DNA of 25,267 nucleotides. It comes from a virus (Duplodnaviria; Heunggongvirae; Uroviricota; Caudoviricetes). The stretch covers positions 1 to 25,267 of the IMG/VR virus record IMGVR_UViG_2684622620_000017; one strand, written 5' to 3'. Of this stretch, positions 1 to 14,000 are shown piece by piece (the first letter of the stretch is position 1; each line of letters opens with the position of its first letter). The position numbers were made by a program, and so were the translations under genes. The notes beneath the pieces are model-generated. The model ran no database searches, was not told the origin of the DNA, and was given only the letters and a program-made list of their open reading frames with translations.

Positions 1-1053
1 TTACGGGGTAATGCCAACCGCTGCCGCCACTTTGTCGCCACTTGGCAGCGTTGCCAGAGGGTTGAAACGGAGCGCCGTTTCCAGATGATCCGGTGCCAGA
101 TGAGCGTAACGCATAGTCATTTTTATATCGTGATGTCCGAGGATTTTTTGCAAAGCAAGGATATTTCCACCCGACATCATGAAATGCGCCGCAAACGTAT
201 GGCGCAGAACGTGTGTCAGTTGACCGCGAGGGAGGACGATAGACGTTTTTTCCATCACGGATAAAAATTGAAAATAGCAGTCTGTGAAGAAATTGAACCC
301 ATCAAGCGCCATGATCTCTTCGTAAAGCTCTTTACTGATAGGGATGCTTCTGTTTTTCTTCCCCTTCGTTCTTACAAAGGTAATTCGGTATTTGGTCACC
401 TGTGAACGAGTAAGATTTACGGCTTCTCGCCAGCGTGCGCCTGTGCTTAAGCATATCTTAACTACCAGTGCCAGAATTGGGTCATGACGTTTGCAATCAG
501 CCAGTAATTCAACAATCTGCTCATGGGTAAGCCATGCCATCTCTTTTTCTGCGATGGTGAATTTTCGCATGTTCTCCAGTGGGTTCGGATACGACCATTC
601 GCCCAGGCGGGATAGTTCGCTAAAAACACTACTTAGATAGCTTTGCTCCAGGTTAATGGTGACCGGGCTTGCTCCTTTCTTCCATTTCTCGCTGAAGTAG
701 ATCTCACCTGTCAGGCGTTTATCTCGATAGTGGGCAAACATTTTAGAGGTTAGATCGGTTGCAAGGGGATTGCCCAGAGCGTCAACCATCAGCAGCAATT
801 TGTCATAGACATGCTGCCCAGCTGTCAGTGATTTACCATGTAGTTTGAACCATAGCTCAACCACGTCTTTCAGTGTTCGACGATCCACTGATTCACCTAG
901 CCAGGGCTTTGCTTCGGTTTCTTCCATCGTGTGACGCTCAAAAGCCAGTGCTTCGCCTTTGGTGGCGAATTGTTTACGCACACGACGTCCACTACGTCCG
1001 GCGGGGTAACATTCGCAAAGCCATTTTCCTGTGGTGAGTTTTCGTACTGCCAT
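1..1053 (-). CDS. int: Phage integrase, tyrosine site-specific recombinase (P2/186 type)
   Basis: 350-aa ORF; C-terminal catalytic region with conserved R...HxxR...Y-type residues (e.g. LRHTFAAH, MRYAHL); GGAGGG RBS upstream of the ATG at 1053; position at the prophage end next to the immunity region. Confidence 0.9.
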   Translation of the reverse strand: MAVRKLTTGKWLCECYPAGRSGRRVRKQFATKGEALAFERHTMEETEAKPWLGESVDRRTLKDVVELWFKLHGKSLTAGQHVYDKLLLMVDALGNPLATDLTSKMFAHYRDKRLTGEIYFSEKWKKGASPVTINLEQSYLSSVFSELSRLGEWSYPNPLENMRKFTIAEKEMAWLTHEQIVELLADCKRHDPILALVVKICLSTGARWREAVNLTRSQVTKYRITFVRTKGKKNRSIPISKELYEEIMALDGFNFFTDCYFQFLSVMEKTSIVLPRGQLTHVLRHTFAAHFMMSGGNILALQKILGHHDIKMTMRYAHLAPDHLETALRFNPLATLPSGDKVAAAVGITP

Positions 1054-1082
1054 AAAAAATGCCCTCCAGTGGAGAGTATTTA

Positions 1083-1102
1083 TACTGTTTTTTTATACAG
1101 TG
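1083..1102. promoter_or_regulatory. LexA-box-like palindrome (TACTGT-N8-ACAGTG) immediately upstream of int
   Basis: Sequence tactgtttttttatacagtg matches the CTGT-N8-ACAG SOS-box core with an AT-rich spacer; lies in the 90-bp gap between the membrane-protein gene stop (1144) and the int start (1053). Confidence 0.35.
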
Positions 1103-1143
1103 TCAATGTATGATGATTGGATAACTATACATATGTTATGTGT

Positions 1144-1824
1144 TTAATGCATTTTAGTTACATCTATGTTTTTATTGATTGTCTCTTTGTTACTGGAAAG
1201 TCTTTGTTCTTTTCTTTTAATGTATAACTCCCAACGAATATTATTCATTATGATAGCGTAGATATTAAAAATAAAAGTCTTTACTACTAACACTAAGTAA
1301 ATAAGGCTAGTCCCTATAACACAGTATCCAAATTTAATAATTAATTCTTTTATCGATTTTGAATATGGAAATAAATCAATTATATTGCCAATTATTCCAT
1401 CTTTTTGACAAAAGAGAATTATTATTAGATAAATGAAAGTAAACGTAATAAATGAGATGAAAACTTTCATAAATGCCATAAAGTTATATTTTAACGTGGG
1501 CATCTGTGTTTTTTTATGTTGTATTGACATCATCTGAAGAAACATCTCGGGTTTGGATAGTGTTGCAAATATTGTGAAACCAGCAATGAGAAAACCTAAG
1601 GTTGTCACTGCAAAGTTAAAACCAATCAAAGCCCAGTTTCTAATGTCAGATACTAAATGAGACATATCCTTCTCAATAAAAAAAGAGTTTGTTAATAAAA
1701 AAATAGATGCTGTGAGCAAAATGCAAATATGGAATGTACTAATAGTAATCCGTTTGCAGAGCAAGTAAACATCCCAAAGGTTTTTCTCTTTGGTTATTTC
1801 TTTAGCATCTATTTTATTTATCAT
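1144..1824 (-). CDS. Hypothetical multi-pass inner-membrane protein (226 aa), distal gene of an AT-rich two-gene cassette; candidate membrane effector
   Basis: Translation shows 4-5 long hydrophobic segments (e.g. ITISTFHICILLTASIFLLTN, WALIGFNFAVTTLGFLIAGFTIFATL, FMAFMKVFISFITFTFIYLIIILF); AT-rich codon usage unlike flanking phage genes; start overlaps the stop of the upstream ORF (ATGA at 1821-1824). Confidence 0.7.
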   Translation of the reverse strand: MINKIDAKEITKEKNLWDVYLLCKRITISTFHICILLTASIFLLTNSFFIEKDMSHLVSDIRNWALIGFNFAVTTLGFLIAGFTIFATLSKPEMFLQMMSIQHKKTQMPTLKYNFMAFMKVFISFITFTFIYLIIILFCQKDGIIGNIIDLFPYSKSIKELIIKFGYCVIGTSLIYLVLVVKTFIFNIYAIIMNNIRWELYIKRKEQRLSSNKETINKNIDVTKMH

Positions 1825-2849
1825 CGACCAAACCTTTCATATATATTGCTAATAATTCTAATCGTCTTTTGTGAAAGAGAACGGGGTAGAGATATCTTAC
1901 CTTCTTCTACAAGATTTTCATACCGCTCATAACTTTCATTTGCAGCTACTACCGTATCCTTTGATAATTCATTCATCTCACTTAACAAAACAAAGTCATC
2001 ATTGCTACCTTTGATTATATCACCATTGTCATCATATCCTTTAATATTTATTCCTGAATTAGCCAATCTGGTTGCTGATGTGAGTTGTTCTAAAACAGCA
2101 CCATGATTCAAGCCTGAATCGGTGTTTGAAAAGCGAATAGATGTAGAAATACTTCCCATTTCGTCTCCGGCACTTTCAAGTGACTCCCAAAATTCGTCGT
2201 TATCAATTTCTTCTTGATTTGTAGGGAGAAGTTTTACTGAGACATTTTGGATTTTATTAAAATTATCAATAAATTGCTCTAGGCTTTGTTTGTCAGTTAA
2301 CGGCGTTATTCTTAGCTTCGGGCGTTTGATTTCGTTCCGTAAGCTTTTTTTAGTGACTCGAGGTAAGTCAGGGTTTTCTTTGCGTTCTTCTTGTGCGGTT
2401 TCGTATAAATGAGATATGTATTTTTCATATTCTATGTTTAAGAAACACTGACTTGTTGACTGAAAGTTTTGAATTGTGGGAGCACCACTAACTTCCTTGC
2501 AAAGAATTAATCTGTGAGTGTTTAATATTAGAAGAAAGAAAGAGCTCGGGGCTGTTTCAAGCTCTTTATGATCTTCAACCAAATCAGCACCATCAAATAC
2601 TTGTTCTCTGGTTAATAATGTATTCTTAATAATCCGACCTTTAATTCCGAGTACTGGGGGTGTTGCTTCTTCGTCAAGTATGACGCATTCAGTATCAATG
2701 AAAAAGAACTCTGATTTGTCAGATATTCTGCGGATGTTTGCCATCTCCAAAAAAGAGGGGAAAACAATTTCATCATAATAGTCTAGCAAAACATCATCAC
2801 CAAAACGGAGAGTATAATTTCCAAATTCGAGTTTTTTTATAAAATCCAT
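1821..2849 (-). CDS. Hypothetical soluble protein (342 aa), proximal gene of the AT-rich two-gene cassette; no family recognised
   Basis: Long AT-rich ORF; GAGG RBS about 8 nt upstream of the ATG at 2849; starts 15 nt downstream of the cI stop; no P-loop or other motif I can identify by eye. Confidence 0.7.
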   Translation of the reverse strand: MDFIKKLEFGNYTLRFGDDVLLDYYDEIVFPSFLEMANIRRISDKSEFFFIDTECVILDEEATPPVLGIKGRIIKNTLLTREQVFDGADLVEDHKELETAPSSFFLLILNTHRLILCKEVSGAPTIQNFQSTSQCFLNIEYEKYISHLYETAQEERKENPDLPRVTKKSLRNEIKRPKLRITPLTDKQSLEQFIDNFNKIQNVSVKLLPTNQEEIDNDEFWESLESAGDEMGSISTSIRFSNTDSGLNHGAVLEQLTSATRLANSGINIKGYDDNGDIIKGSNDDFVLLSEMNELSKDTVVAANESYERYENLVEEGKISLPRSLSQKTIRIISNIYERFGR

Positions 2850-2864
2850 TACTATGCCTCAAGA

Positions 2865-3743
2865 TTAAATAGTACGGTACTGTGAGAAAATTTTGGCAAC
2901 TAATTTTATATCTTCTTTTTCACAATCAAATGTTAAATCATCGTCTGTTACTCGAAGATTGCCTCCAGGTAATAGAAAAATTTGTTTTAACTTGAAATTA
3001 TTTTGGTATTGAACAATCCATCTTCCGTCTTCAACATTAGCTTTATTCATGTGTGCAATATTTATGCAATGTTCGTCTTCAATTGCGAGTAAATCATTAA
3101 AATGAGGAAGCAGGGACTTATCTATCAATAAATGACCAGCATCGAAAATTTGATTGTCAATAAGTTTTACTTTAGGAATTTCTAAAGCTTCACTTTCTTC
3201 GCTTCCAAGTTTTTGCCCGCGCCCAGTTGCTAACCATAAAAGAGAAGTTCTTGTTTCCAACGAGCATCTTATGATCCAGTCAGCTGGGAATGTGTCTCGC
3301 AAGTATCTATTCGCCATTGTGCTTTTAGACACATTCAAATGGTCGGCAAGTTCTTGTCTTGTTTTAAAGCCATACGCTTCCATTAGCCTGTTTATCGCAT
3401 TACGTCCACCTGAATCCAGATTTGGATGGTTCACAATTGGGTTCTCGTTGGTGGTGGCTTTGGGAACATATTGAACCAATGATGCTGGTTCCTCTAATTT
3501 AGCGGGAACTTCGGTATTCTTAGGAAATGGCACGCCTTTTCCGAATGAGAGCCACTCTATAGATGCTCCTGTTTCAATTGCACACTGAATTACCCAGTCA
3601 GCAGGAAATGCGTCACGCATCCAGCGCGTTCCCATAGTACTTGCAGATACATTGAACTGTTCACATAGGGCTTGCCGCGTCTTGAATCCATACGCTTCAA
3701 GCATGCGCGTTATGACTGCCTGTCCTCCGTTTTTGAAATTCAT
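2865..3743 (-). CDS. cI: 186-type CI immunity repressor with a tandem-duplicated N-terminal DNA-binding domain plus C-terminal domain; no LexA-like peptidase domain evident
   Basis: Two internally homologous segments (RMLEAYGFKTRQALCEQFNVSASTMGTRWMRDAFPADWVIQCAIETGASIEWL and RLMEAYGFKTRQELADHLNVSKSTMANRYLRDTFPADWIIRCSLETRTSLLWL) of the phage CI-repressor DNA-binding type. The maximal ORF begins at a GTG at 3776, but the first ATG (3743) has a better context and the GTG overlaps the putative rightward promoter, so 3743 is used. Confidence 0.8.
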   Translation of the reverse strand: MNFKNGGQAVITRMLEAYGFKTRQALCEQFNVSASTMGTRWMRDAFPADWVIQCAIETGASIEWLSFGKGVPFPKNTEVPAKLEEPASLVQYVPKATTNENPIVNHPNLDSGGRNAINRLMEAYGFKTRQELADHLNVSKSTMANRYLRDTFPADWIIRCSLETRTSLLWLATGRGQKLGSEESEALEIPKVKLIDNQIFDAGHLLIDKSLLPHFNDLLAIEDEHCINIAHMNKANVEDGRWIVQYQNNFKLKQIFLLPGGNLRVTDDDLTFDCEKEDIKLVAKIFSQYRTI

Positions 3744-3769
3744 CTGGTACGCCTTTGAGTAATATTGAG

Positions 3770-3798
3770 TTGACACTTCTCAAATGAAGAATTAATGT
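3770..3798 (+). promoter_or_regulatory. Candidate rightward early (lytic, pR-like) sigma70 promoter in the cI/apl switch region
   Basis: TTGACA at 3770-3775, 17-nt spacer, TAATGT at 3793-3798 (or ATTAAT with 15-nt spacer); repeated TTGAC motifs nearby could be operator half-sites; located between the divergent cI and apl-like genes. Confidence 0.4.
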
Positions 3799-3868
3799 GT
3801 GCGAAAGTGAACTTGACGGTGTTAATCACCAGTTACCACACATCATGTTAATCGAGGAATCTTGCATC

Positions 3869-4090
3869 ATGACTCCACATATTTCAATCACCTTAGCTGT
3901 TCCATCTGTTTCTATTGAGAAATACAGCGAACTGACTGGCTTATCTATCGACACCATCAATGACATGCTGGCTGATGGACGTCTTATTCGCCATCGTCTC
4001 CGGAAGGACAAAAAAAGAGAAAAGGTAATGATCAACCTTGCTGCTCTTACCGTTGATGCACTTACTGATTGCAATGTTGTATTCAACTAG
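3869..4090 (+). CDS. Apl/Cox-like small HTH protein (excisionase / lytic-promoter repressor type)
   Basis: 73-aa ORF directly downstream of the candidate pR and divergent from cI; sequence ([24 protein letters not shown]) looks like a helix-turn-helix; start could alternatively be the ATG at 3845. Confidence 0.55.
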
Positions 4091-4122
4091 TTCCATTTTG
4101 GGATATATCAGGGGTGTCGACT

Positions 4123-4632
4123 ATGTTTGATTACCAAGTTTCCAAACATCCACATTTTGATGAAGCCTGTCGTGCATTCGCGTTGCGCCACAACCTGGTG
4201 CAACTGGCAGAACGTGCAGGCATGAATGTGCAGATTCTGCGGAACAAGCTGAACCCAGCTCAACCTCATTTATTAACCGCACCAGACATCTGGCTGCTTA
4301 CCGATCTGACTGAGGATTCAACGCTGGTAGATGGTTTTCTGGCACAGATTCATTGTCTGCCATGTGTACCAATTAATGAGGTGGCAAAAGAGAAACTGCC
4401 ACATTACGTCATGAGTGCAACCGCAGAGATCGGGCGTGTTGCTGCAGGTGCGGTATCTGGCGATGTAAAAACCAGTGCAGGTCGTCGTGATGCTATCAGC
4501 AGCATTAACTCTGTAACACGACTGATGGCGCTGGCTGCTGTTTCATTGCAGGCCCGTTTACAGGCTAATCCTGCGATGGCGAGCGCAGTTGATACCGTGA
4601 CTGGCCTCGGTGCTTCATTCGGTTTGCTGTGA
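4123..4632 (+). CDS. cII: CII-like lysogeny-establishment transcription factor (186 CII type)
   Basis: 169-aa ORF, the same length as phage 186 CII as I recall it, in the position expected after apl; the homology itself is not verified here; start chosen at the ATG at 4123. Confidence 0.65.
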
Positions 4633-5446: not shown

Positions 5447-5673
5447 TGGCTGATGCAATGGATCTCGTCCAGCAGCGCGTTGAAGAAGAACGCCAACGTC
5501 ATATCCGTGCTGCCCGTGCCAAAACGCCGGGCGTGTCCCGCGTGCTTTGCGTTGAGTGTGAAGCGCCAATTCCGCCAGCACGCCGTCGTGCCATTCCGGG
5601 TGTGCAGCTTTGCATTACCTGTCAGGAAATCGCAGAGCTGAAAGGCAAACATTACAACGGAGGTGCTGTATGA
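5446..5673 (+). CDS. TraR/DksA-family C4 zinc-finger protein
   Basis: 75-aa protein with CVEC-x17-CITC (C-x2-C...C-x2-C) arrangement typical of phage TraR/DksA-like zinc fingers; translationally coupled to neighbours. Confidence 0.75.
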   Translation: MADAMDLVQQRVEEERQRHIRAARAKTPGVSRVLCVECEAPIPPARRRAIPGVQLCITCQEIAELKGKHYNGGAV

Positions 5674-6527
5674 GCACCATCCTGAAATGGGCGGGAAATA
5701 AAACCGCCATAATGTCCGAACTGAAAAAGCATCTTCCTGCTGGCCCACGACTGGTTGAACCTTTCGCGGGTTCCTGTGCAGTGATGATGGAGACGGATTA
5801 CCCCAGCTATCTTGTTGCGGATATTAATCCTGATTTAATCAACCTCTATAAAAAGGTTGCTGCTGATTGTGAGGCGTTTATATCTCGTGCCAGAGCTTTA
5901 TTTGAGGAAGCAAACAGGGAGGTGGCTTATTACAACATAAGGCAGGAGTTTAATTACTCCACTGAAATTACTGATTTCATGAAAGCGGTATATTTTCTGT
6001 ATCTCAATCGTCATGGTTACCGTGGGTTATGTCGCTATAACAAGAGCGGGTATTTCAACATTCCCTACGGTAATTATAAAAATCCGTATTTCCCTGAAAA
6101 AGAAATTCGCGCATTTGCAGAGAAAGCCCAGCGGGCAACGTTTATCTGCGCCAGCTTTGATGAAACGCTGGCGATGTTGAAGGCGGGGGATGTGGTGTAT
6201 TGCGATCCGCCGTATGACGGTACGTTTTCCGGCTATCACACTGATGGTTTCACTGAAGATGACCAGTATCACCTGGCATCCGTTCTTGAACATCGGTCAT
6301 CAGAAGGACATCCGGTCATTGTTTCTAACAGTGACACATCCCTGATCCGTTCGCTGTATCGCAATTTTACTCACCACTACATCAAGGCAAAACGCAGCAT
6401 CGGTGTGGCAGCTGGTGATAGTAAATCTGCAACAGAAATCATTGCTGTTTCCGGGGCGCGCTGCTGGGTGGGATTTGATCCTTCGCGTGGCGTAGATAGT
6501 TCTGCTGTGTACGAGGTGCGTGTATGA
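5670..6527 (+). CDS. Dam-like N6-adenine DNA methyltransferase (orphan, no cognate endonuclease in window)
   Basis: N-terminal AdoMet-binding-like motif (LKWAGNK...VEPFAGS) and catalytic DPPY motif ([11 protein letters not shown]); GGAGGTG RBS upstream of the ATG at 5670, which overlaps the upstream stop. Confidence 0.8.
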
Positions 6528-9030: not shown

Positions 9031-9050
9031 TACTGTAAATATAAACAGTG
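9031..9050. promoter_or_regulatory. LexA (SOS) box within the promoter region of the small-ORF/DinI-like operon
   Basis: tactgtaaatataaacagtg matches the CTGT-N8-ACAG palindrome with an AT-rich spacer; located about 40 bp upstream of a strong RBS (AGGAGG) and the ATG at 9091. Confidence 0.55.
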
Positions 9051-9090
9051 GTTATGTATACAGTATTGTTTTGGTGTCATAGGAGGAAAG

Positions 9091-9279
9091 ATGCAGGACT
9101 ATTTTTTGGAGTCTTTGAAGCTCCAGCGCATTGATTTTTTTCTTAAGCTTGTAGCGGCTAGTGAGTGTAGTGATGAAGAGAAGGGGCTGGCTCTGCAGTG
9201 GGTTTCTGAATTGACAGATGAACTCATGGCAAAAATCAGAAGCCACGAATACAACCGCTCAATGGATGTCATCAGCTGA
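9091..9279 (+). CDS. Small protein (62 aa) in an SOS-controlled operon; candidate Tum-like antirepressor (by position only)
   Basis: AGGAGG RBS 5 nt upstream of the ATG; LexA box upstream; followed 10 nt later by the DinI-like gene. In phage 186 the LexA-controlled operon at this genomic position encodes the antirepressor Tum; homology not verified. Confidence 0.5.
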   Translation: MQDYFLESLKLQRIDFFLKLVAASECSDEEKGLALQWVSELTDELMAKIRSHEYNRSMDVIS

Positions 9280-9289
9280 GGTGACTTTT

Positions 9290-9523
9290 ATGCGCATTGA
9301 AATAATGATCGATAAAGAGCAGAAGATTAGCCAGTCTACCCTGGACGCCCTTGAATCCGAGCTTTACCGCAATCTGCGCCCCCTGTATCCCAAAACGGTA
9401 ATTCGCATTCGCAAAGGTAGCTCTAACGGTGTGGAACTAACCGGACTGCAACTGGATGAAGAAAGAAAACAAGTGATGAAAATTATGCAGAAGGTGTGGG
9501 AGGACGACAGCTGGCTGCATTAA
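9290..9523 (+). CDS. DinI-family protein (damage-inducible, RecA modulator type)
   Basis: 77-aa protein MRIEIMIDKEQKISQSTLDALESELYRNL...QKVWEDDSWL has the DinI family pattern (MRIE... start, acidic C-terminus ending in W); GAGGTG RBS; downstream of the LexA box. Confidence 0.75.
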   Translation: MRIEIMIDKEQKISQSTLDALESELYRNLRPLYPKTVIRIRKGSSNGVELTGLQLDEERKQVMKIMQKVWEDDSWLH

Positions 9524-9531
9524 GAAATGTT

Positions 9532-9566
9532 GCCCCCAGGAGGATTCATTCTGATGGGGGCTAGTT
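9532..9566 (+). terminator. Candidate intrinsic terminator after the DinI-like gene
   Basis: GC-rich inverted repeat GCCCCCA (9532-9538) / TGGGGGC (9555-9561) followed by TAGTTTG; the loop is long (16 nt), so this is a weak call. Confidence 0.3.
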
Positions 9567-9715
9567 TGGGCAATGAGTGAAATAAGGCGTAAGGTGGGCG
9601 GTTATTTTGATAAGTGATCGTCCGCTTTGTGTCAGAAGCAGAAGTGGGAGTGTCTGAGACTCTCTAAAAGTTGATGATTCACTTACAAAACCATTTTCCT
9701 GATGGATGCTTACAC

Positions 9716-10051
9716 TTACGAATGATCATTCTGTTTAGTCTTCATGAGAAAATCCCGAATCTTTGCCAAGTTTGAATTTTCGGGGATTGAATCCATGTAC
9801 GGATCACGCTCAAACACTAATTGCTCAGATTCAACGAAAGCCTGCCACTCTACTGGGTCTAGCTCAAATCCCATTGCTGTCATATCACTTTCATCTTCCC
9901 CCTCGATCCAGTGGACTAAATAAAACAATTCATCATCAGGAGAATCATCCTCACCATCAACAATATCAACATCGGTTACAGTGATACGTAGGGTGGGATC
10001 GATTTTTGAAACATAAATTCCTAACTGTGGTATAGGGGGAATATTGTTCAT
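9716..10051 (-). CDS. Small, strongly acidic hypothetical protein (111 aa)
   Basis: AGGAG RBS about 8 nt upstream of the ATG at 10051; translation is rich in Asp/Glu (e.g. DVDIVDGEDDSPDDELF, EGEDESD); lies in the accessory region between the DinI-like gene and the cos-like motif. Confidence 0.6.
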   Translation of the reverse strand: MNNIPPIPQLGIYVSKIDPTLRITVTDVDIVDGEDDSPDDELFYLVHWIEGEDESDMTAMGFELDPVEWQAFVESEQLVFERDPYMDSIPENSNLAKIRDFLMKTKQNDHS

Positions 10052-10299
10052 GGAAACTCCTTTTATTGGTGTTTGCTATTTGAATAAAAATACGCCAAAC
10101 AGAGTGTTAACTGTGAATATGGAAAGAATCGTTGTAAGTACCCCGCTTAGGTGTCCCATTCTATTTTAGAGGTTCTCGTGCATATGGATTATGTTATCTG
10201 AAAGTTAACTTCCGCTTCCCGTTCACAGCGAACATTCATCTTTGTAAACCCGTATGATCCGTTTTTCAAGTGGCCATTCAGATACGGATTTTCACTTCC

Positions 10300-10329
10300 T
10301 TGACAGTGCATGACTATGCTGCATGAAAT
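10300..10329 (+). promoter_or_regulatory. Candidate sigma70 promoter in the accessory intergenic region
   Basis: Perfect -35 TTGACA at 10300-10305, 17-18-nt spacer, weak -10 (ATGAAA/TGAAAT) at about 10323-10329. Confidence 0.3.
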
Positions 10330-10363
10330 CGCATGATCGATTGAGGATCGTCTTTGCTCAGAT

Positions 10364-10386
10364 CCGCCAGAACTGGCGGGCTTTTG
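10364..10386 (+). terminator. Candidate intrinsic terminator (hairpin plus T-run) about 35 nt downstream of the candidate promoter
   Basis: CCGCCAG aa CTGGCGG inverted repeat (10364-10379) followed by GCTTTTG (10380-10386). Confidence 0.35.
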
Positions 10387-10430
10387 CTCATGTTATGCAT
10401 GTGCATGAAAACCACTGCATAAAGCGGGCA

Positions 10431-10449
10431 GGCGTGGCGGGGATACGAG
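10431..10449. other. cos-like motif (possible cohesive-end site)
   Basis: GGCGTGGCGGGGA matches the first 13 nt of the 19-nt cohesive end of 186/P2 as I recall it (GGCGTGGCGGGGAAAGCAT / GGCGAGGCGGGGAAAGCAC), then diverges; lies between the A-side accessory genes and the portal gene, as cos does in P2. Confidence 0.3.
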
Positions 10450-10582
10450 CGCGCGTTATGACAAATAGATGATTAGCCTGATTTATTTACAGCTGTATAA
10501 ATGATCACCTTGTAATTAGGTAAGTAATGTCTTCTATTATCATTGATTTGATAGGATTAATCTGTTTTTTGAGGATTAGAGG

Positions 10583-12919
10583 ATGATTGAAGAGGTAGTT
10601 ATTGACAAGGTAGGCTCATATAATGGCCCTACGCAGCTTTTACATGGACTTTCTAAATTTAACTATTTATATGGAGCTAATGGTGCAGGTAAAACAACTA
10701 TAAGTAAAATTATTAATGACCCTGAACAATATCCAACATGTCCGATTAAATGGAAAAATAATATATCTTTAATAAGCTACGTATATAATAAAGATTTTGT
10801 TGAAAGAAATTTTAGTCAAGATAAAATTAAAGGTGTATTTACCCTTGGTAGCGATCTTAAGGAGGATGAAGAGAAACTAATATCTCTTAAAGAAGAAAAA
10901 AATAAGCTAATGGAATCTATTATAGCAAAGGAAAAGTTAATAGATGGTGGTGATAATGAATTAGGCGTTATTAAAAAAATCGAAGACCATGAAAAATCTT
11001 TTAAAGATTCATGTTGGAAGCAAAAAGTAAAACATGACAATGTGTTCTCAAAGGCTTTTGAGGGATTAAGGAATAGTAGTGAAAAATTTAAAGCCAGAGT
11101 GTTGGCTGAGTATGAAAATAATACATCAGAAGTTTGCTCAATAGCAGAGTTAATTGAGAAAGCAAAAATTGTTTTTTCTACTGAATTGACATCACATGTA
11201 TCAATTACAATTCCATCCTTCAATGGGATAGATGATATTTTGAGTAGGGAAATTTGGAGTGAGCGTATTCTAGGGAAAAAAGACGTTAGTGTTTCAGACT
11301 TAATTACAATGCTCAATAATAGTGATTGGGTTAAGGAGGGTTTAACATATTTCAGTAAATCTAATCCCAAGTGCCCATTCTGCCAGCAGGATGTAAATGA
11401 TAATGTATTTGATAATCTTTCATCATATTTTGATAAAACATATGAGTTAAAAAAAAGAGAAATCGATGCATTGGTTTTACAATATGAATATCAACTTAAT
11501 AATATCTTGAAGGCGATAGATGATATAAGGGCGATTAAATCTCCATTCATAAATTATGAAGTGTTTGAGGATAAGGCTAAGATAGTATTATCTGAATTAA
11601 ACAAGAATTTTGAATTGGCAAAAAATAAACGCAATTTTTTAAGTGAATCAGTTCATTTTAGTGACTTAAGTGAAGTTGTTGATGATTTTATTTCTTTTTT
11701 GAATGATTCAAATCTATTGATAGATAATAATAACAAAATACATAGTAATAGAAAGGTAGAGGCTAGTAATCTTTCTAAGCAGATATGGGCATATATCGTA
11801 AAGGTGGAGTTAAAGTCTGAAATAACTTCTTACCGTAGCAAATCTGATAAATTTAATAGGACGTTACAAGGACTTAAATCTGGGATAGAAGAAGACAAAA
11901 AGAAGTTAATGTTAAATACTTCGGCTATTGAGGCAATTGAGTCTAATAAAACCAGTACTCTTCCAACTATTACAAAAATTAACAAGATTCTGGACTCTTA
12001 TGGCTTCAAAAATTTTTACTTAAAACCCTCCGAAGATAAAAAGCATTATATGATAGTGAGAGATAGTGGAGATAATGCTCGTACAACCCTTAGTGAGGGA
12101 GAAAAGACATTTATCACTTTTTTGTACTTTTATAGCCTTGTTAGAGGGAGTGATAATGCATCAGGTGTTTTAGATGATCGTGTTGTAGTATTTGATGATC
12201 CAATTTCAAGTTTAGATAGTGATATTCTGTTTATTGTAAGTTCGTTGATTAAAGATTTAATGGAGGATGTTCGTAAGGATGAAGGAAATATTAAGCAAAT
12301 TATATTCCTTACTCATAATATTTATTTTCATAAAGAGTTGACTTTTAATACCAAAAGATCCGGTAATCAAGCAATGAAAGAGGAGACTTTTTGGATTGTA
12401 AGGAAAAAAGGGAAGGTTTCATATCTTGAAAAGTGCGAATCAAACCCAATAAAAACGTCTTATGATTTGCTCTGGTGCGAATTGAGAAGAACAGACATTA
12501 ATAATAATACTATACAAAATACAATGCGAAGGATTTTGGAGAATTACTTTAAGATATTAGGTGGGATGGATATTAGGAAGCTTGAGTGTCATTTTTATGG
12601 TGATGAAAAAATCATATTTAAATCTTTAGTGTCATGGATTAATGATGGTTCTCATTTTGCAGGTGATGATCTTTATATGAATTTAGATACGGAGTCTGTG
12701 CAAAAATATTTAATTGTTTTTCAGAAGATATTTGAATGTAGTGAGCATACTGCCCATTACAAAATGATGATGGGTGAGTTTTATAAACCGTTAAATGAGT
12801 CACTTCATCTACAAAATGAGTTTGATATAGATGATAGTGCGAATGATGAGTATGCTTCGTCAAAAATTGAGATAAAAGATGGAATAAACACATCTCTACA
12901 TAGCAACACATATTTGTAA
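10583..12919 (+). CDS. AT-rich 778-aa ABC-type (Rad50/SMC-like) ATPase with coiled-coil insertion and CxxC motif; RloC/PrrC-like candidate anticodon nuclease / abortive-infection protein
   Basis: Walker A GANGAGKTT near the N-terminus; ABC signature-like LSEGEKT, Walker B/D-loop VVVFDDPISSLD and H-loop FLTHN about 480-560 aa downstream; long Lys/Glu-rich, likely coiled-coil insertion with a central CPFC (zinc-hook-like); C-terminal region has RRILE (R-x3-E) followed by conserved His candidates, reminiscent of the PrrC Arg-Glu-His nuclease triad; strong RBS GAGGATTAGAGG. Confidence 0.6.
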   Translation: MIEEVVIDKVGSYNGPTQLLHGLSKFNYLYGANGAGKTTISKIINDPEQYPTCPIKWKNNISLISYVYNKDFVERNFSQDKIKGVFTLGSDLKEDEEKLISLKEEKNKLMESIIAKEKLIDGGDNELGVIKKIEDHEKSFKDSCWKQKVKHDNVFSKAFEGLRNSSEKFKARVLAEYENNTSEVCSIAELIEKAKIVFSTELTSHVSITIPSFNGIDDILSREIWSERILGKKDVSVSDLITMLNNSDWVKEGLTYFSKSNPKCPFCQQDVNDNVFDNLSSYFDKTYELKKREIDALVLQYEYQLNNILKAIDDIRAIKSPFINYEVFEDKAKIVLSELNKNFELAKNKRNFLSESVHFSDLSEVVDDFISFLNDSNLLIDNNNKIHSNRKVEASNLSKQIWAYIVKVELKSEITSYRSKSDKFNRTLQGLKSGIEEDKKKLMLNTSAIEAIESNKTSTLPTITKINKILDSYGFKNFYLKPSEDKKHYMIVRDSGDNARTTLSEGEKTFITFLYFYSLVRGSDNASGVLDDRVVVFDDPISSLDSDILFIVSSLIKDLMEDVRKDEGNIKQIIFLTHNIYFHKELTFNTKRSGNQAMKEETFWIVRKKGKVSYLEKCESNPIKTSYDLLWCELRRTDINNNTIQNTMRRILENYFKILGGMDIRKLECHFYGDEKIIFKSLVSWINDGSHFAGDDLYMNLDTESVQKYLIVFQKIFECSEHTAHYKMMMGEFYKPLNESLHLQNEFDIDDSANDEYASSKIEIKDGINTSLHSNTYL

Positions 12920-12930
12920 TTTTATTACAA

Positions 12931-12960
12931 TTGCCAGTAGCAACAATACGGTACTGGCAA
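12931..12960. terminator. Hairpin between convergent genes (ATPase gene and portal gene Q); possible bidirectional terminator
   Basis: 9-bp inverted repeat TTGCCAGTA (12931-12939) / TACTGGCAA (12952-12960) with a 12-nt loop in the 49-bp gap between the two stop codons; AT-rich flanks. Confidence 0.35.
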
Positions 12961-12968
12961 CTAATATT

Positions 12969-14000
12969 TTAGTTAAGCTCATATGGAGAAAATTCTATAA
13001 GTTTTTCCCCGAGCCATGCATTAATTTCTCTAAATCGTTTTTGCAAAGGAATTAATTCATTTATCACAAAAACCTTACTAGCCTTCTCCACATCCCCAAA
13101 CCCCCCGACATTATTAGGCATAATCCCCATCATTTGCGGTGGAACGCGGTGTGCCGCCATCATGTCATCGCGACTAACATTTTTGATATTCAGAAACTCA
13201 TCCTTCGCTGCGACTTCTGATAACGGGATAATCTGAAGCCCGTCCTTTTTGCCGTTAGGTGAGTACATAAACAGGTTGCGGAAGTTGCCCGGCCCTTTGG
13301 CGCTTTTCATCGCATTGCGGAGGTTGTTCACATCCTCCTGGTTTTGCGCGGCATCGGTCATGTACATGATAAAGCCCGCATGACTGCCGTTAATGTAATA
13401 CTTGCGACGGAACAGCGTGGCGGACTCGTTGAGCAGGGCTGACGGAATGGCAGAAAGATAACCGGGCAGGCCGTAGATCTCCTGATTAATATCCGGTTCC
13501 ATCAGATGAAAAATGCTGCCTTTCGTGAACTGATACGGCTGGGTTGTCATACCGTATTGCACAAACCAGTAGGTATCCAGGTCTAATCCGCGTCGGGTGT
13601 ATTTTGCCAGCGCAGGTTCAAGGGCGATCACTTCACCGAAGCGGTTCGTGCGTTTCTCCAGATAGGCGTTGCCAAATACCAGATAGTCCTGCACAAAACG
13701 CGAAAAAGCTTGCTGGCTGAGCAGAGGATGAGGGATATAGGTACTGGTCAGAATGTTGCACTTTACTGCAATCGGGGAACTGTGATGCACGGCAGCGCGG
13801 AAGGTGCGCGCCAGTCCGTCAAAGCTGACGGGCGGCTCATACCAACGGTCCATCTGTACGCATTCCACATAGTCCAGTAATTCTCGGCGGTCCAGAACAG
13901 GAACGGGATCGCCGAAGCTGAATGCTTCGGCTGAAGTTTGGTTTTTATGCTGGATCTGATTCGTCGCCGCAGTGCGGTTTTTCTTACTCTTTCCCATCAA
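12969..14000 (-). CDS. Q: Portal (capsid vertex) protein, P2 gpQ type
   Basis: 343-aa ORF, the first gene of the leftward Q-P packaging operon; size and position fit P2 Q; start overlaps the P stop. Confidence 0.85.
   Translation of the reverse strand: MMGKSKKNRTAATNQIQHKNQTSAEAFSFGDPVPVLDRRELLDYVECVQMDRWYEPPVSFDGLARTFRAAVHHSSPIAVKCNILTSTYIPHPLLSQQAFSRFVQDYLVFGNAYLEKRTNRFGEVIALEPALAKYTRRGLDLDTYWFVQYGMTTQPYQFTKGSIFHLMEPDINQEIYGLPGYLSAIPSALLNESATLFRRKYYINGSHAGFIMYMTDAAQNQEDVNNLRNAMKSAKGPGNFRNLFMYSPNGKKDGLQIIPLSEVAAKDEFLNIKNVSRDDMMAAHRVPPQMMGIMPNNVGGFGDVEKASKVFVINELIPLQKRFREINAWLGEKLIEFSPYELN

Follow-up and report, generated by a model that had tools for sequence, protein, structure and literature searches.

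A 186-type CI repressor with two N-terminal helix-turn-helix domains of different classes in a P2/186-like prophage of Escherichia coli

The locus and its repressor gene

The stretch of DNA analysed here (hereafter the window, 25,267 nt, positions 1 to 25,267 of IMG/VR record IMGVR_UViG_2684622620_000017) belongs to a P2/186-like (Peduoviridae) prophage of E. coli whose integration site adjoins rcdA/ybjJ, and of which strain SF-173 carries an essentially identical, annotated copy. Its cI gene, the subject of this report, encodes a 186-type repressor with two complete N-terminal helix-turn-helix (HTH) domains and one C-terminal domain (Table 1). The gene lies in a switch laid out as in phage 186, with a leftward cI(-int) operon facing apl-cII and an inverted-repeat operator over the putative pR promoter; homologues of the apl/cox-like gene give a weak Phage_Cox match. 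Although the maximal open reading frame (ORF) of cI (2865..3776, minus strand) would specify 303 aa from a GTG, we favour the ATG at 3743 because the RefSeq start (WP_001009712.1) and the N-termini of homologues agree, single-domain relatives beginning at the equivalent Met. The gene is at least 99.7% identical in 13 complete E. coli chromosomes and 100% identical on five IMG/VR contigs, which excludes an assembly artefact, and a collapsed duplicate is excluded because the two domain copies are too diverged to collapse.

Table 1. Features of the repressor, its switch region and the SOS module, in window coordinates.
Feature	Position	Strand	Description and basis
Window	1-25,267		P2/186-like (Peduoviridae) E. 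coli prophage, IMG/VR record
cI	2865..3743	minus	292 aa from ATG at 3743; ORF list, RefSeq of identical gene, Pfam
C-terminal (oligomerisation) domain, 186-type	2874..3188	minus	residues 186-290; PF16452, 2fjr/2fkd alignment, Foldseek
HTH domain 2, b-class	3213..3410	minus	residues 112-177; 186-like recognition helix KSTMANRYLRD; Pfam, domain HMM, AlphaFold2
Inter-domain linker	3411..3530	minus	residues 72-111; 40 residues, predicted disordered, fast-evolving
b-class palindrome GTTCACAATTGGGTTC	3429..3444	unstranded	inside cI, linker-coding part; candidate distal FL-like site
HTH domain 1, a-class	3531..3728	minus	residues 6-71; recognition helix ASTMGTRWMRD; domain HMM, tree, pLDDT about 90
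Putative pR	-35 TTGACA 3770-3775; -10 TAATGT 3793-3798		placed by analogy with 186
a-class palindromic candidate operator ACTTCTCAAATGAAGAAT	3775..3792	unstranded	fills 17-nt spacer of putative pR
b-like half-site AAGTGAAC	3806..3813	+	weak candidate; conserved in three window-type variants; alignment
Putative pL	3859..3887	minus	TTGAAA-17-CAAGAT, faces pR; comparison with annotated 186 pL
apl/cox-like gene	3869..4090	+	73 aa, first gene of rightward lytic operon; ORF and annotation of identical prophage
cII (Phage_CP76)	4123..4632	+	Pfam E 1.3e-41
SOS module	9033..9523	+	LexA box, tumA-like ORF, dinI-like ORF
LexA box CTGTAAATATAAACAG	9033-9048		canonical; pattern search
tumA-like antirepressor ORF	9091-9279	+	62 aa
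dinI-like ORF	9290-9523	+	DinI Pfam match

Domain architecture of CI

Pfam matched Phage_CI_repr (PF07022) in two stretches of the protein (E 4.1e-59 for the protein) and Phage_CI_C (PF16452) once, at residues 188-285 (E 2.2e-16), while the same search gave no Peptidase_S24 match. When the N-terminal 107 residues were compared with the remainder of CI by BLASTP, 45 of 104 aligned positions were identical (E 2e-31). Over the 66 residues of the two domains identity reaches 56% in protein and 59% in DNA, with 11 nt as the longest in-register identical run. The original prediction, made from the sequence alone, held that two segments of the repressor (DNA 3534-3716 and 3216-3398) are more than half identical and that each is a complete CI-type N-terminal domain, followed by a single C-terminal domain; this description was correct, and both segments fall within the domains as mapped here.

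The N-terminal domain of 186 CI is 36-38% identical to each of domain 1 and domain 2, and the phmmer alignment of the whole of 186 CI (PDB 2fjr) is confined to residues 115-290 of the window protein (E 1.3e-23). An AlphaFold2 monomer model, built with an alignment of 43 homologues, places five-helix domains at residues 7-67 and 113-173 (pLDDT about 90), predicts the linker to be disordered at residues 76-105 (pLDDT below 50), and gives a beta-rich C-terminal domain that Foldseek aligned with 2fkd at a TM-score of 0.90 and an rmsd of 1.5 Å. At 292 aa with two HTH domains the protein does not match the canonical 186-type architecture, which has one HTH domain in about 190-205 aa; 186 CI itself has 192 aa and a single such domain, as the original prediction stated.

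Ancestry of the modules

To place the two domains we computed pairwise identities and a neighbour-joining tree of 152 distinct domain sequences. Domain 1 nests among the N-terminal domains of single-domain repressors of 206 aa (a-class), at 85-88% identity. Domain 2 falls with single-domain repressors of 197-199 aa (b-class) and with the second domain of every other two-domain repressor (double), at 77-80% identity. In most other doubles, which we term classic, the first domain comes from a clade confined to doubles. The two domains of the window protein are thus not each other's closest relatives, as the products of a recent in-situ duplication would be: they are 56% identical to each other and 85-88% and 77-80% identical to domains of other proteins. 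The tandem duplication originally proposed is therefore not supported, and the DNA is a mosaic of two phage lineages.

The mosaic is plain at several scales. Window positions 1-3445, which hold int, genes for 226-aa and 342-aa proteins, the C-terminal domain, domain 2 and the last ~14 linker codons, are 85% DNA-identical to a Klebsiella aerogenes prophage (L008) with a single-domain 197-aa CI, in which cI is likewise followed by the 342-aa and 226-aa genes. Positions 3535-4198 (domain 1, switch and apl) match a phage with a 206-aa single a-class CI (L005) at 71%. Compared with the b-class single-CI prophage of strain L73, which has the same att site, the backbone is 96-97% identical except at 1067-3854 and 9534-13037. 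Two sister doubles, of 297 and 293 aa, have both HTH domains in common with the window gene (87% DNA identity over the first 556 nt) and carry instead an L73-type C-terminal domain (70-79% identity). Because the DNA is mosaic and the domain identities point to different sources, the repressor is built of exchangeable modules, namely operators plus domain 1, domain 2, and the C-terminal domain. Most likely, the layout arose and spreads by recombination that puts a foreign module of operators and N-terminal domain before an existing repressor gene. The E. coli LR-51 a-class prophage is a remnant without the ogr end.

At its C-terminal end, over ~14 codons, the linker shows homology to the N-terminal leader of single b-class repressors. 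With these codons removed, the linker of no double type aligned better than shuffled sequences (z between -1.4 and 2.1), and the idea that the linker is the translated former 5' region or operator of a b-class gene, suggested by a first local alignment, failed and was dropped.

Selection on the two domains

Between the window gene and its 293/297-aa relatives, dN/dS is 0.02-0.06 in domain 1, 0.12-0.16 in domain 2 and 0.33-0.51 in the linker, with dS of 0.2-0.6 in the domains and 0.2-1.0 over domains and linker together. In an alignment of 43 doubles both domains show little or no variation at the positions of the HTH signature and the recognition helix, and recognition-helix residues S139, S141, T142, R146 and Y147 of domain 2 are invariant. 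Both domains are under purifying selection. A passenger domain is disfavoured because both are kept at low dN/dS with conserved HTH residues.

The same data bear on the possibility that the gene is an artefact, a pseudogene or a recent neutral fusion whose extra domain is functionless, which we regard as very improbable: its recombinant origin is evident, yet it is intact in the 13 complete genomes and five viral contigs, diverged variants keep both domains at dN/dS of 0.16 or less, and there are dozens of independent tandem lineages.

Distribution of the tandem layout

Two N-terminal domains were found in about 46 of the best 120 protein clusters at 90% identity, with hosts in Escherichia, Klebsiella, Salmonella, Citrobacter, Enterobacter, Edwardsiella and Kosakonia. 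Among the best 150 matches to domain 2 (50%-identity representatives), about 35 had at least two matched stretches, and these included proteins of Pantoea, Hafnia and Shewanella. A scan of one genome per species returned two doubles among 80 loci, the remainder being mostly single-domain genes. Deposited Klebsiella phages such as 4LV2017 (ARB15674) carry a tandem-HTH CI, and the CI of the Salmonella phage PSP3, a 186-like reference phage known for decades (NP_958086, 286 aa; L253 4219-5079, minus strand), has two PF07022 matches and one PF16452 match. The arrangement is therefore widespread rather than peculiar to this gene.

In homologues from Shewanella (P0225/P0294), and in P0267/P0268, the two N-terminal domains are 68-73% identical and mutually closest, which indicates independent recent duplications as judged from their sequences; tandem arrangements therefore arose more than once. 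Two metagenomic proteins of 340 and 460 aa (P0184, P0231) have 4-5 matched domain stretches. In the literature searched we found no paper recognising or studying a second HTH in a 186-type CI, and a comparative paper of 2011 noticed that PSP3 CI is longer but ascribed this to a 'longer C-terminal domain' (PMC3448106). The tandem layout is widespread and annotated plainly as a repressor, but apparently neither characterised nor recognised in that literature.

An a-class palindrome at pR

The intergenic regions of many loci were compared in a common orientation. In a-class single phages the promoter consists of TTGACA, then a palindrome of CTTyNCA half-sites in a 17-nt spacer, then the -10 element. 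The palindrome CTTyNCAwwTGnrrAG and the TTGACA occupy the equal promoter position in window-type doubles and in four a-class single phages, and the left half of the window copy, ACTTCTCAAATGAAGAAT, is identical in one of the latter. At up to 3 mismatches ACTTCTCAAATGAAGAAT is unique in the window, and loosely set scans of the rest of the window for a-class half-sites or palindromes returned noise only. The -10 element of the putative pL ends 5 nt before the apl ATG, as in 186. A scan with the sigma-70 consensus reported no promoter in 3600-4150, because the -10 elements are weak.

Downstream of the palindrome, the b-like half-site AAGTGAAC occupies the place of an a-class half-site in a-class single phages, and its GTGAAC is also the right half of the palindrome inside cI described below. 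On sequence grounds this GTGAAC may contribute to domain 2 binding beside pR, which we offer only as a hint. Between cI and apl, where the original prediction had asked for operators spaced to suit tandem domains, a symmetric a-class palindrome was found at pR, and no composite a+b operator.

The element TAGTTCCATTTTGGGATA (4088-4105) immediately follows the apl stop, at the place of FR and pE in 186. It was considered as a distal FR-like site of domain 2 and rejected, since it is kept in phages of every repressor class, a-class-only phages included. Probably it is not a CI site specific to one class but a promoter or an element connected with CII, and it may belong to pE.

A b-class palindrome inside cI

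In b-class single phages, of which one pR operator reads GTACCCAATTGGGAAC, the site GTNCCCAATTGGGNAC stands at -37 relative to the start of cI, and a weaker copy is found at +22. Over 35.8 kb that include the whole L73 prophage, no other GTNCCCAATTGGGNAC site appears at up to 3 mismatches. GTNCCCAATTGGGNAC resembles the core of the 186 pR operator, and the b-class recognition helix is likewise 186-like. A scan with GTNCCCAATTGGGNAC at the same threshold found no b-class site at the window's pR. Its only match in the window, and in a 38.8-kb assembly of the window and adjoining SF-173 DNA (prophage plus flanking host genes), is GTTCACAATTGGGTTC, which lies in the register equivalent to +22 of the b-class single cI, some 347 bp away from the middle of the candidate pR operator. 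In this register the b-class consensus is matched with 0, 0, 0, 2 and 2 mismatches in five window-type variants, with 3 mismatches in nearly all b-class single genes (5 in one), and with 3-7 in classic doubles. The encoded peptide varies among the window-type variants, being PIVN or PIGN.

Single-domain b-class cI genes (for example L176 31692-31707 and L008 3015-3030) contain a conserved half-palindromic copy of their own operator, GTACCCAAATGAGATC, at codons 5-10, 59 bp from the pR operator of those loci, which may be an additional autoregulatory site.

The SOS module

A canonical LexA box precedes a tumA-like and a dinI-like ORF (Table 1). The split tum form is known from PSP3 and Fels-2 (PMC3121763), and the PSP3 annotation likewise has tumA and tumB. 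By analogy, induction would proceed via the LexA-controlled TumA-like antirepressor rather than by RecA-stimulated cleavage of CI. A second exact CTGT-N8-ACAG match, CTGTTTTTTTATACAG, occurs at 1085-1100, just upstream of the int start, with 0.21 such matches expected in the entire window; this may be due to chance or be a LexA box that governs int.

A proposed dual-specificity repressor and its alternatives

The reading we prefer, to which we give a probability of about 0.5, is that CI is a working 186-type immunity repressor with two paralogous HTH domains of different specificity on one oligomerising C-terminal domain. Domain 1 would bind the a-class palindrome between the -35 and -10 elements of pR and thereby determine immunity; it is cast as the pR reader because palindrome class and co-inheritance are shared with single-domain relatives. 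Domain 2, on its flexible tether of roughly 40 residues, would bind b-class sites, the best candidate being the palindrome inside cI, although this step is weaker than that for domain 1. The C-terminal oligomer could bridge pR and the intragenic palindrome, an idea proposed by analogy because the position of that palindrome resembles 186 FL. The jobs that one HTH performs in 186, at the pR operators and at distal sites, would then be split between two domains, and cross-immunity to phages with b-class operators would be a possible side effect. The recurrence of the tandem layout argues for function.

Several points weigh against the dual-specificity reading. All the operator assignments rest on sequence and co-inheritance. 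GTTCACAATTGGGTTC derives from a site that single-domain genes already have, with 3 mismatches, and encodes a loosely conserved P-I/N-E/G-N peptide, so that coding constraint may explain part of its conservation, and the window-type variants share ancestry and count as roughly one evolutionary event. About one GTNCCCAATTGGGNAC match at up to 3 mismatches is expected by chance in the window; at up to 2 mismatches the expectation is estimated at about 0.08, and shuffles of the 35.8-kb L73 sequence gave 0. Classic doubles mostly have no good site in this register, so that the model may not generalise. Finally, the ogr/pB promoter region, which differs at 1 of 116 nt between the SF-173 prophage and a b-class single-CI prophage, yielded no clear palindrome of either class, and holds only a b-like palindrome with 4-5 mismatches and one TTGTGAAT half-site.

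Alternatively, domain 2 might not read DNA at all and might serve as a structural spacer for the oligomer, or as a docking surface for the TumA-like antirepressor that would preserve SOS inducibility after an immunity swap. We consider this unlikely, although the distribution of the 62-aa antirepressor lends it some weight. The protein is 97% identical to that of the L73 prophage, whose CI shares with the window CI only the b-class domain (77% identity, compared with 26% between the C-terminal domains), and one antirepressor allele occurs with at least seven C-terminal domain types, always beside a b-class domain, in b-class singles, window-type doubles and classic doubles alike. This pairing suggests that the antirepressor targets an N-terminal domain, which would be a second possible reason to keep domain 2, but the covariation of allele and domain class is loose: similar b-class singles also occur with a much more divergent antirepressor allele, and a homologue with 41% identity occurs in an a-class phage, so that the antirepressor's target may be the family of domains as a whole. 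The literature searched yielded no description of the 186 CI region contacted by Tum. The near-invariant recognition helix of domain 2 and the retained palindrome that matches it fit DNA binding.

The original prediction had suggested another binding mode, in which the two HTH domains of one chain read two half-sites of one operator, or two adjacent operators, and so alter cooperativity. In the structural model, two intact HTH domains on a long flexible linker could reach neighbouring major grooves, and the b-like half-site AAGTGAAC, kept by the three window-type variants, is some 26 bp away from the middle of the a-class palindrome. However, the recognition helices of the two domains differ, the pR palindrome is symmetric, a-class and common to single-domain phages, which implies two copies of domain 1 from a dimer, no composite operator was found, and the 186-type C-terminal domain already supplies dimers. 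We therefore judge the whole-operator mode probably wrong, with a low likelihood. Changes in immunity specificity, and in cooperativity or looping, are plausible.

Slightly less probable again is the inverse assignment, in which domain 2 is the real operator reader and domain 1 an add-on, conferring for example immunity to a second phage type or acting as a decoy. It is true that domain 2 and the C-terminal domain alone make a complete 186-like repressor, and that the recognition helix of domain 2 is the more 186-like of the two. Against this, pR lacks a b-class palindrome; the one in its spacer is of the a-class type and arrived along with domain 1, which also has the lowest dN/dS.

Extended to other phages, the dual-specificity reading becomes a tentative proposal that we hold as possible rather than likely: tandem-HTH 186-type repressors would be natural dual-specificity oligomers, in which the outer domain is swapped along with the pR operators and determines immunity, and the inner, conserved domain keeps contact with backbone elements (the distal site in cI, possibly the antirepressor). 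If this is true, a phage could acquire a new immunity type in one recombination step without losing looping, autoregulation or SOS inducibility, and its lysogens may be immune to two phage types at once.

Accessory genes

The variable blocks of the prophage hold further genes. Between cI and int, at 1144-2849 (minus strand), are the 226-aa and 342-aa ORFs, for which neither Pfam nor PADLOC gave a match. In sister prophages the same slot holds a pair of AAA ATPase and DUF4276 genes, which we take to be PARIS-like, or DUF4041, or GmrSD; the cI-int slot looks like a defence-gene hotspot, and the 226-aa/342-aa pair may be an undescribed system. The block 9534-13037, the second segment that differs from the L73 prophage, contains a gene for a 778-aa AAA_13 protein (10583-12919, plus strand) that PADLOC assigned to candidate system PDC-S06 (E 1.6e-266), with weaker PrrC, LmuB and AriA matches. 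A Dam-type methylase gene, frameshifted by annotation in SF-173 (L001 2702-3558), is an intact 305-aa ORF in the window (5610-6527).

Comparison with known systems

The closest well-studied counterpart is phage 186, whose CI (PDB 2fjr, 2fkd) shares Pfam families and folds with the window CI. In both phages cI is first in a leftward operon facing apl-cII, with int downstream, and pR faces pL; the spacer of pR is taken up by a palindromic operator, the 186 central operator standing at the equivalent place. Induction of 186 uses a LexA-controlled Tum-type antirepressor, for which the window has candidate genes. The FL site of 186 lies inside cI about 306 bp from pR according to the GenBank annotation, compared with about 347 bp for the window candidate. 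CI of 186 forms a 14-mer wheel that wraps DNA, with looping between pR and distal sites including FL (PMC3675496). The window CI differs in having two HTH domains of different classes and a 40-residue disordered linker where 186 has one HTH domain; overall identity is about 30%, and the operator sequences differ.

PSP3 has an equal CI layout and split tumA/tumB, but its CI is 28% identical to the window CI and has different domain classes in both positions. Classic doubles (about 308-318 aa), found in P2-like prophages of Klebsiella, E. coli and Salmonella, share the b-class second domain and an apl-cII backbone that is 92-97% identical. Unlike the window protein, they have a first domain from the doubles-only clade with a 20-residue N-terminal extension, GTGAA-type repeats rather than an a-class palindrome at pR, and a degenerate intragenic b-class site. 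Among single-domain repressors, the 206-aa a-class CI proteins (P0054 and others) are close relatives of domain 1, and their phages of the switch DNA; the 197-199-aa b-class proteins (P0007; WP_000107902 in L73) are closely related to domain 2, and with P0007 the relationship extends to the C-terminal domain and to the genes downstream. These a- and b-class relatives have the att site beside rcdA in common with the window, but one HTH domain and one operator class found in the switch. Two DNA-reading modules per chain, an arrangement that permits recognition of asymmetric or composite sites, are also described for the double TetR repressor Mce3R (PMC11667970) and a two-domain mycobacteriophage repressor (PMC9283540); these have unrelated folds, are monomers or pseudo-dimers and have no 186-type oligomerising domain, so that the likeness is one of analogy only.

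The 186 switch is a reference system for transcriptional interference and for the way in which an oligomeric repressor wraps and loops DNA. A natural, putative wheel with 28 rather than 14 DNA-binding domains, of two specificity classes, would offer a test of how operator choice, looping and immunity are partitioned, and would show that adding a module can give rise to a new immunity specificity with no non-functional stage in between. Tandem proteins are annotated just as 'phage repressor protein CI', and predictions of immunity groups that assume one domain would therefore be wrong for such P2/186-like prophages of E. coli, Klebsiella and Salmonella.

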